Part shown: positions 42,945-44,775 of the stretch, piece after piece
How the letters are laid out: the number at the start of each line of letters is the position of its first letter
Numbering within the stretch: the first letter of the stretch is position 1
NCBI GenBank assembly: GCA_964016885.1
Contig: OZ024749.1
Location: 49,104,001 to 49,168,000, forward strand
DNA from: Eledone cirrhosa
Lineage: Eukaryota
DNA: 64,000 bases
Direction: 5' to 3'
Program-made: the position numbers and the translations under genes
The notes under the pieces: generated by a model
Told to the model about the DNA's origin: nothing
The model's database searches: none
What the model saw: only the letters and a program-made list of their open reading frames with translations

Positions 42945-43431
42945 TCATATGTATATATATATATATGTAAAATATAAAAAAAATAATGAATAAAACAATG
43001 AAACAGTTCCTTATATTAAACAAAAAAAGTTCATTATTTAACGATCGTTTCTAGGACATATATATGTATGTATATATATATATATATATATATGTGTATA
43101 TATGTATTTATATATGTGTGTATAAATATGTATATATATATATATATATATATATATATATATATATATATATATATATATATATATATATATATATATA
43201 TATATATATATATGTGTGTGTGTATGTGTGTATGTATATAAATACATGTATATATATATATATTTATATATGTATTCATATATATCTATATATATATATA
43301 TATAAATATATATATATATATATGTATATGGATGGTTATATAATGTATTTTGCAATACACTTCATGCTTAATTAAAAGCATTTTGAAGACCGTAAGCTAT
43401 TGTTTTAAAGTAGTGACAGATTCACTCACTT

Positions 43432-43526
43432 TGATCTCAGCAAACAGGGTAGATAAGCCGACAAGACTTGTATCGCTTTGGTTGAAGCTTATCAAGGCCA
43501 ACTACCCCACCTGTTTGCTGAGATCA
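43432..43526 (-). ncRNA. Sister hammerhead in the inverted 316-bp unit (GAAA changed to GAUA)
   Basis: ggcc-TTGATAA-gctt(caacca)aagc-GATA-caa(gtc)ttg-TC-ggct, with a perfect 17-bp outer helix. Confidence 0.65.
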
Positions 43527-43867
43527 TTGATGTTATATTCTTATAGAAATCTAGTAAATAATCAGGAGCTGATTATGCAGAGCGGTTGTTGGTCAGGCAG
43601 AAATTAAAAATTAGAATTGGAGCTCTGAAATAGCAATATATATATGGATGTATATATAATGTATTTTGCAATACACTTTATGCTTAATTAAAAGCATTTT
43701 GAAGACCGTAAGATATTGTTTTAAAGTAGTGACAGATTCACTCACTTTGATCTCAGCAAGCTATTTCACTGCTCCAATTCTAATTTTTAATTTCTGCCTG
43801 ACCAACAACCGCTCTGCATAGTCAGCTCCTGATTATTTACTAGATTTCTAGAAGAATATAACATCAA

Positions 43868-43962
43868 TGATCTCAGCAAACAGGCGGGGTAGTTGGCCTT
43901 GATAAGCTTCAACCAAAGCGAAACGAGTCTTGTCAGCTTATCTCCCCTATTTGCTGAGATCA
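43868..43962 (+). ncRNA. Type-I hammerhead (U3-A8 core) with long stem-I extension, in the 316-bp repeat
   Basis: ggcc-TTGATAA-gctt(caacca)aagc-GAAA-cga(gtc)ttg-TC-agct, enclosed by tgatctcagcaaacagg and cctatttgctgagatca. Confidence 0.75.
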
Positions 43963-44775
43963 AAGTGAGTGAATCTGTCACTACATTAAAACAATAGCTT
44001 ACGGTCTTCAAAATACTTTTAATTAAGCATAAAGTGTATTGCAAAATACATTATATATACATCCATATATATATTGCTATTTCAGAGCTCCAATTCTAAT
44101 ATATATATATATATATATATATATATATATATATATATATATATATATATATATATATATATATGTGTGTGTGTGTGTGTGTGTGTGTGTATATATATAT
44201 ATACATGTATATATATATATATATATACATGTATATATATATATATATATATATATATATATATATATATATATGCATTCATATTTATATCTCTCTCTCT
44301 CTCTCTCTCTCTCTCTATATATATATATATATATATATATATATATATATATATATATATATATATATGTATTCATATATGTATCTATATATATATATAT
44401 GTATTCATATATATATCTATATATATATATATCTATATATATCTATATATATATATATATATATATATATATATATATATATATATATATATATATATAT
44501 ATATATATATTCATATATATATATTTATATATATATAGTAGTAATAATAAATTTGAAGACTAAAATCCCAAAAGGCTTCGATAAGGGTAAACATATATCA
44601 AGTATATAAGAACCGTAGAGCAAATATTTATTAAAATAACAGATTAAAGTTTAAGCAAAAACCGCTGCTTTCACCCTTAGCGAGATCTTATAAAACTAAA
44701 AGAATCAATCTGTGAAAACAGAAGTAAATATTTCGCGAAACGTTGCAACCGAAGGAAGACAGGAAGACGATACTT

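Follow-up and report, generated by a model that had tools for sequence, protein, structure and literature searches.

The question raised by this locus, which lies in a 64,000-nt stretch of the Eledone cirrhosa genome (the window), is how a 316-bp unit that carries a hammerhead ribozyme, and that stands there in both orientations, came to be inserted. A preliminary description of the window proposed a candidate non-LTR retrozyme, possibly mobilised by Penelope-like elements (PLEs), and this proposal fits everything that was tested here, namely the unit itself, the covariation of its stems and the PLE-type ends of its copies. Our reading is that a non-coding 316-nt hammerhead unit, inserted as two arms in AT microsatellites, is very likely copied in trans by the endonuclease and reverse transcriptase of a PLE, and we put the probability of this at roughly 0.85.

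The 316-bp period first described was recovered in both orientations: in the minus arm, 117 of 123 bases match at an offset of 316, against 25-45 at the other offsets between 300 and 334, and the plus and minus arms align with 87% identity over 768 bases, gaps counted. What had been taken for tandem arrays are arms of just 1.4 and 1.08 units, which meet head to head at 43759|43760 (Table 1); the two orientations in the window are a single two-armed insertion, a point which the preliminary description missed. Each arm does hold one type-I hammerhead with the TTGATAA core, a GCTT/AAGC stem II and a GTC site, as had been stated. In the plus copy the core occupies 43899-43905, stem II 43906-43919 and the GAAA 43920-43923, with a predicted cut after 43934; helix III is self-complementary, and a long stem-I extension pairs 43869-43898 with 43935-43961. 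The minus copy is predicted to be cut between 43460 and 43459. Both window hammerheads are weakly matched by the Rfam model HH9, at scores below its gathering score of 52 (26.3 and 20.4 bits; E 3e-4 and 0.027), and when the whole window was searched against Rfam, the 150 matches listed, out of 218, were nothing but miRNA noise caused by microsatellites. The two copies carry the differing lesions ascribed to them (GAAA to GATA in the minus copy, a C-A mismatch in the plus copy). An intact fold, which had been credited to their consensus, does exist in the family, yet no consensus is needed to find it, as in 80 loci 182 of the 211 natural hammerhead units satisfy a descriptor of core and stems; adjacent pairs of intact hammerheads are present in 27 arms of these loci, and the window copy has none. 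The fragment at 8392-8530, reported as a recurrence of the same unit, belongs instead to a sister family (B), to which it is 96% identical, versus 89% to the 316-bp family (A).

Table 1. Features of the locus, in window coordinates. Unit positions (u) are counted from u1, the base 3' of the predicted hammerhead cut; S1 and S2 are the two start sites.
Feature	Position	Strand	Remarks
Left arm	43320..43759	-	440 bp (1.4 units); outer end S1 (u140), inner end u17
Right arm	43760..44100	+	341 bp (1.08 units); inner end u142, outer end S2 (u166)
Plus hammerhead	43869..43961	+	type-I, U3-A8 core; C-A mismatch at first stem-I pair
Minus hammerhead	43433..43525	-	core 43495-43489; GAAA to GATA (43474-43471)
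'Tail' between start sites S1 and S2	44075..44100	+	26 nt; confined to one of the outer ends
Left (AT)n target tract	43058..43329	.	final ~10 bases inseparable from the unit's AT run at S1
Right (AT)n target tract	44099..44537	.	
Family-B fragment	8392..8531	-	separate, 5'-truncated, ends at S2 in (AT)n; without hammerhead core

Other repeats of related kinds were observed in the window. The terminal repeat of a Neptune-like PLE is represented by two ends, S1 and S2, at 3296-3383 (minus strand) and 3818-4033 (plus strand), which a different, inserted repeat keeps apart; 57564-57873 is a small two-armed piece of the terminal region of a Hydra-like element ('PLE-4'), 94-95% identical to a young copy; and 10768-11148 holds inverted pieces of another PLE-like terminus that carries a hammerhead, with a long helix II and two ends about 60 nt apart. 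Adjoining the insertion, at 44539-45043, is an (AT)n-flanked repeat with a 141-bp internal duplication and a possible decayed hammerhead, which recurs in several other loci examined.

That the unit is a multicopy family is borne out across the 3.0-Gb genome, where an exact 30-base core pattern occurs 615 times (reversed control 0), mostly, among the loci mapped, in dispersed two-armed insertions. Family-A copies lie on many chromosomes amid unrelated flanks; the long pieces depart from the column majority by a median of 1.3% (143 pieces), and the family is young. The only ATG-initiated ORF of at least 40 aa in a natural 3.4-unit array extends out into the flank, and the unit is non-coding. Two sister families are closed units like A, and older: B, with a 318-bp unit, 74 exact cores and the canonical CUGAGGA core, is about 79-86% identical to A, and C, with a U3-A8 core, an odd base in stem II and copies 85-90% identical to the query, about 74-80%. 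Up to 24 family-A units can follow one another head to tail. Signs of later expansion at the DNA level were noted in three long arrays, of at least 24 units (L136, 2237-9901), of about nine units (L132, 2689-5661) and one whose units share a 12-bp deletion (L129). Three other organisms or samples (X4, X5, X6) contain about half of the words of the unit, at low depth.

Covariation of the stems, which had been suggested as a check on the fold, is present both as paired swaps between families A and B and as one swap within A. Both sister families depart from A in stems I-III by compensatory swaps; between A and B, both sides change at three pairs of stem II, at two of helix III and at the first of stem I. 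The 3-8 core pair is U3-A8 in A and C versus C3-G8 in B, and a subfamily of A has exchanged a helix-III A-U pair for U-A, fixed in five loci. These compensatory changes are few independent events, yet they fall at pairs needed by a working hammerhead. The monomer fold has a z score of -6.2. Helix III is a 5-bp palindrome; its 11-mer has no fold alone, and two copies pair at about -10 kcal/mol in all families. This pairing between copies fits the dimer mode described for animal hammerheads, for which a palindromic helix III has been read as a dimer switch (PMC4209133). The hammerhead would likely cut best as a dimer in tandem transcripts, whose cleavage would release monomers that would in turn circularise. 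Among predicted Xenopus retrozymes, one of nine was cleaved in vitro (bioRxiv 10.64898/2026.07.22.740005). At one locus (L253) the core position A9 (u287) is changed in all four units of both arms, so that a ribozyme that is probably inactive was still copied.

The anatomy of the insertions was mapped in 116 family-A loci, comprising the 33 best DNA matches, 47 loci taken in order along contig C1 from the list of core pattern occurrences, and 36 others from two helix-III pattern lists, with one segmental duplicate and overlapping stretches removed; the loci were chosen because they hold a near-full unit or the core of a hammerhead, so that arm lengths and the counts of cut-site crossings given below are biased upwards. 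Two head-to-head arms, with the 3' ends of the RNA outward, make up 89 of the 116, and 27 are one-armed. Array ends had been described as variable in phase; this holds for the inner ends, which are scattered across the whole unit, whereas the outer ends lie at one of two fixed phases, S1 (observed at u136-141) or S2 (u164-177), 26-37 nt apart. The true S1 may be anywhere in u130-140, because the AT run of the unit itself matches the target. When both ends of a two-armed locus are canonical (76 loci), they are S1 and S2 in 74, S2 and S2 in two, and S1 and S1 in none (binomial p 8e-20 for the 74); a further 13 two-armed loci have one damaged end. Family B follows the same rule in 21 of 25 cases, with two S1+S1 and two S2+S2 (58 loci), and the same S1 and S2 ends were found by eye in family C. 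Canonical ends are followed by (AT)n in 157 of 190 cases, and at S1 homology to the target reaches 10 nt; a target-site duplication, which in animal non-LTR retrozymes is longer than 4 bp where present, would be hidden by the (AT)n in which the ends sit. The junctions between arms show overlaps of 1-9 nt in 54 of 88. An excess of arm 5' ends at u1-27 went from p 0.035 to 0.066 with more loci and is not claimed. When (AT)n-flanked ends were clustered, the other two-site families were offset by 60-90 nt and none by 26-37.

Two fixed outer ends, one per arm, are the two-start-site 'tail' signature of PLE reverse transcription, and the two-armed form with its fixed ends is the strongest evidence for the link to PLEs. 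In vitro, a PLE reverse transcriptase starts at two internal sites of the RNA, which delimit a tail, and extends both strands of the target (PMC11167929), whilst an inverted 5'-truncated copy, a one-sided tail of 30-40 bp and a bias towards (TA)n are given as hallmarks of PLE insertion (PMC8557442). An inverted truncated arm, a one-sided tail between fixed sites and an AT-repeat target are all present here, and an autonomous Neptune-like PLE of the same genome ends at S1 and S2 in 6/6 two-armed copies with both outer ends visible (by eye). A PLE protein would nick an (AT)n tract on its two strands, and from either nicked strand reverse transcription would be primed within the RNA, at S1 (u130-140) for one and at S2 (u166-177) for the other. 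Both cDNAs would read past the hammerhead site over one unit or a few, halting at variable points, and their ends would be joined through short microhomology. Against this reading, the anole enzyme, unlike what is seen at S1, starts at a non-homologous site, with no difference between strands in the site used (PMC11167929). The one-ended tail has already been described for PLEs; the near-strict pairing of one site per arm exceeds the in vitro result and bears on how PLEs make inverted ends.

It could be argued that the unit is instead the pseudo-LTR of an autonomous PLE yet to be found, the copies being its 5'-truncated ends. The ends are indeed PLE-like, an autonomous Hydra-like family of this genome also has a U3-A8 hammerhead and a palindromic helix III, and pairs of hammerheads on opposite strands in Schistosoma have been read as truncated PLEs (PMC4209133); moreover, contigs of sample X1 are about 20-fold deeper on the 3' part of the unit, implying unseen relatives that share that part. 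Against this, upstream of the hammerhead the arms enter the previous unit, never a constant UTR or ORF, and the sister families B and C are closed units too. The preliminary description had held that constant attachment to a PLE ORF would mark an ordinary pseudo-LTR, and no fixed link emerged from 80 loci searched with PLE proteins and 36 with PLE DNA, apart from three one-off junctions; the PLE ORF pieces near 11 of the 80 loci come from several families in mixed orientations. This explanation is already mostly refuted and we regard it as very improbable.

Less probable still is that a LINE, for example the abundant RTE-like element, moves the RNA through L1-style twin priming. Twin priming gives head-to-head inversions with microhomology, and the genome abounds in a LINE whose open frame has 1040 aa. 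LINE priming, however, starts at the RNA's 3' end and its second site is variable, whereas both sites here are internal, fixed and common to three families 75-85% alike, and the LINE copy at locus L280 came in later, into a two-armed copy which it now splits. Least credible of all is amplification as DNA, whether of a satellite or of a palindrome, through fold-back, slippage or unequal crossover, in which the hammerhead would be a passive relic. Later DNA-level duplication is apparent in some long arrays (L132, L136), but the copies are scattered among flanks that are unrelated, their outer ends are fixed and their arms offset, the compensatory changes preserve an RNA fold, and A-to-G changes on the sense strand are fixed at 5 of 10 stem-I adenines as opposed to 2 of 78 elsewhere.

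If the unit is copied in trans by PLE machinery, the form of its template can be considered from the arms. The hammerhead cut site is crossed in 174 of 189 arms, twice or more in 50, and a single arm stops at u1-3; as the arms read through this site, a cut linear monomer is not the usual template, and the template was continuous across it, being either a ligated circle or an uncut multimer. A variant of the preferred reading, to which we give somewhat less than even odds, is that in every case reverse transcription proceeds by rolling circle on a monomeric RNA circle. Variants that mark subfamilies are, with few exceptions, fixed in every unit of a locus and in both arms, two loci, including the window (u41), have a private variant in all of at least three units across both arms, and circles have been shown for the retrozymes of coral, mussel and axolotl (PMC7229834). 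On the other side, 8 of 71 informative loci hold between them 10 variants that both arms share and the other units lack, nine of them at mirrored positions, whilst 257 comparable variants show no such sharing; from a monomer circle it could arise only with later gene conversion between arms. Locus L253 was copied despite a core change in all four units, and hammerhead cleavage is dispensable for the anole PLE in vitro (PMC11167929). We estimate that multimers serve as template at least part of the time. Joints that go back by 314 occur in contigs of four sequencing runs, which do not separate genomic tandems from circles.

As to which PLE provides the machinery, the genome holds many that target (AT)n, in more families than the five sampled. 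A young Neptune-like PLE is the likeliest driver, a choice we make tentatively and at a little under even odds, and the Hydra-like families stand behind it as rather unlikely candidates. The Neptune-like family (L219-L250) is very young, with matches to RVT_1 and GIY-YIG, a CX4CxxC linker and many intact 775-aa frames that lie behind an overlapping upstream ORF. The Hydra-like ORFs are not recognised by Pfam (E 0.09), their clade being called from motifs given in PMC8557442. A very young autonomous Hydra-like PLE with a U3-A8 hammerhead was observed at L174-L193, and a PLE protein of the genome has its best named relative, at 40%, in Argonauta hians. The Neptune-like ends fall about 125 nt past the element's own predicted cut and then 35-55 nt further, which comes near the spacing in the retrozyme and is a weak argument.

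The 5' junctions of one-armed copies also bear on this choice. Five PLE references were compared, and in three of the 27 one-armed family-A copies the junction lies no more than 40 nt from one of them; in two of the three, the Neptune-like PLE is joined directly. L120 has a retrozyme arm that ends at S1 head to head with a Neptune-like arm that ends at S2, with a 2-nt overlap and with the junction inside the AT run of the unit itself; at L110 a tandem Neptune-like array stops in its first ORF (ORF1) and runs collinearly into the retrozyme, with no PLE remainder beyond. The remaining junction (L287) is near the terminal repeat of a Hydra-like PLE, a repeat which has a tiny inverted arm of its own. 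The Neptune-like PLE covers between 0.07% (young copies) and 0.6% of the flanks, so that two junctions in 27 have p of about 2e-4 to 0.011, uncorrected for the five references, and none of the 16 one-armed family-B copies is joined to a PLE reference. The Neptune-like junctions could also have arisen by nested insertion followed by deletion; simple nesting is seen at L280, where both arms of the copy split by the LINE are kept. In the left flank of L130 a one-armed copy was observed to adjoin, head to head, another and older PLE at its 5' part; the ORF of this PLE is broken. Comparison of the unit with the terminal repeats of the five PLE families (six natural copies) gave no significant similarity, the best being matched by 14 of 300 shuffles and the Neptune-like terminal repeat by 92-207 of 300. 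Two candidates were rejected: the likeness of the 'PLE-4' terminal repeat to the unit is at chance level (149-161 of 300 shuffles), and the PLE beside a family-B fragment at L031, which looked like the partner, carries a hammerhead of its own, and its end comes about 300 bp earlier.

A further lead concerns the long stem, in which fixed variants cluster instead of avoiding it. At u257-264 (about 43875-43882 in the window) A-to-G is fixed at half of the ten stem adenines, an excess over the rest of the unit (Fisher p 1e-4) that is less marked in comparison with C-to-T in the same stem (p 0.054). Paired adenines with a 5' G are spared, and ADAR has a neighbour preference of this kind. Judged from sequence, the pattern looks like A-to-I editing before reverse transcription, with selection for pairing in the long stem as a rival cause, in whose favour the weak C-to-T comparison speaks. 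A more specific scenario, which we hold to be doubtful, would unite these leads: a ribozyme RNA with no detectable kinship to its helper would be caught by a dimer of the Neptune-like reverse transcriptase, one subunit per start site; L120 would be a single event in which one strand copied the retrozyme from S1 and the other the PLE RNA from S2, L110 a template switch between RNAs, and the unit would evolve at the RNA level with A-to-I editing fixed as A-to-G. If true, the helper, the priming sites and an editing-driven route of mutation would be named for an animal retrozyme.

The nearest relatives by form are the animal non-LTR retrozymes (PMC7229834; bioRxiv 10.64898/2026.07.22.740005), with which the family shares an AT-rich non-coding unit in the range 170-400 bp, tandem copies, one type-I hammerhead per unit and co-occurrence with PLEs; on these sequence-level features it would belong among them. 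Features of the plant LTR retrozymes are absent, the topology being type-I and not type-III and there being no unique internal region. The animal retrozymes are described, in the text at hand, as head-to-tail repeats, with no mention of paired head-to-head arms, of fixed start sites or of junctions between retrozyme and PLE, all of which are seen here, and the U3-A8 core and 5-bp palindromic helix III also set the unit apart from those described. The Xenopus families have homology to pseudo-LTRs (bioRxiv 10.64898/2026.07.22.740005), in contrast to the 316-bp unit, which shows none in five PLE families. With the EN+ PLEs of the Neptune and Hydra clades (PMC8557442, PMC11167929) it has in common the inverted 5'-truncated arm, the one-ended tail, (TA)n and two internal start sites of reverse transcription downstream of the hammerhead (the last from PMC11167929). 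It differs from them in having no ORF, in repeating on itself, in full hammerhead helices versus the minimal PLE form, and in a near-strict use of one site per arm where no strand difference was reported in vitro. The PLE hammerheads of Schistosoma mansoni (PMC4209133) likewise have a U3-A8 core and a palindromic helix III and occur in opposite-strand pairs 100-700 bp apart, but those minimal motifs were ascribed to truncated PLEs and the unit here is a self-contained tandem one. The non-autonomous elements of Chlamys, e.g., MRC1 (PMC8557442), are similarly PLE passengers with multicopy head-to-tail insertions; they are, however, green-algal, generally similar at the 3' end to an autonomous partner and for the most part without canonical hammerheads.

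Mobilisation of retrozymes by PLEs has been proposed before: PLEs are called a strong candidate in PMC7229834, and the case was argued from co-occurrence and pseudo-LTR homology in bioRxiv 10.64898/2026.07.22.740005, which itself states that evidence on the retrozyme life cycle is limited. No cephalopod retrozyme and no two-armed retrozyme insertion was found in the openly available article texts that were searched, although the family may be catalogued already under another name; the words 'ribozyme' and 'retrozyme' are absent from the Octopus vulgaris repeat paper (PMC13282606), and the giant squid paper gives just a count of 235 hammerhead-1 hits (PMC6962438). How animal retrozymes move, and whether RNA circles are intermediates of transposition, is a standing question, to which this family brings hundreds of PLE-type footprints, start sites predicted to within a few bases and a candidate helper with intact ORFs; helper, start sites and the choice between circle and multimer are thus testable with the existing in vitro PLE assay. 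In comparison with these known systems, we consider this a new family of animal non-LTR retrozymes for which the evidence on movement is unusually direct, the link between PLE and retrozyme, mostly proposed before, being very likely read here in the insertions themselves.
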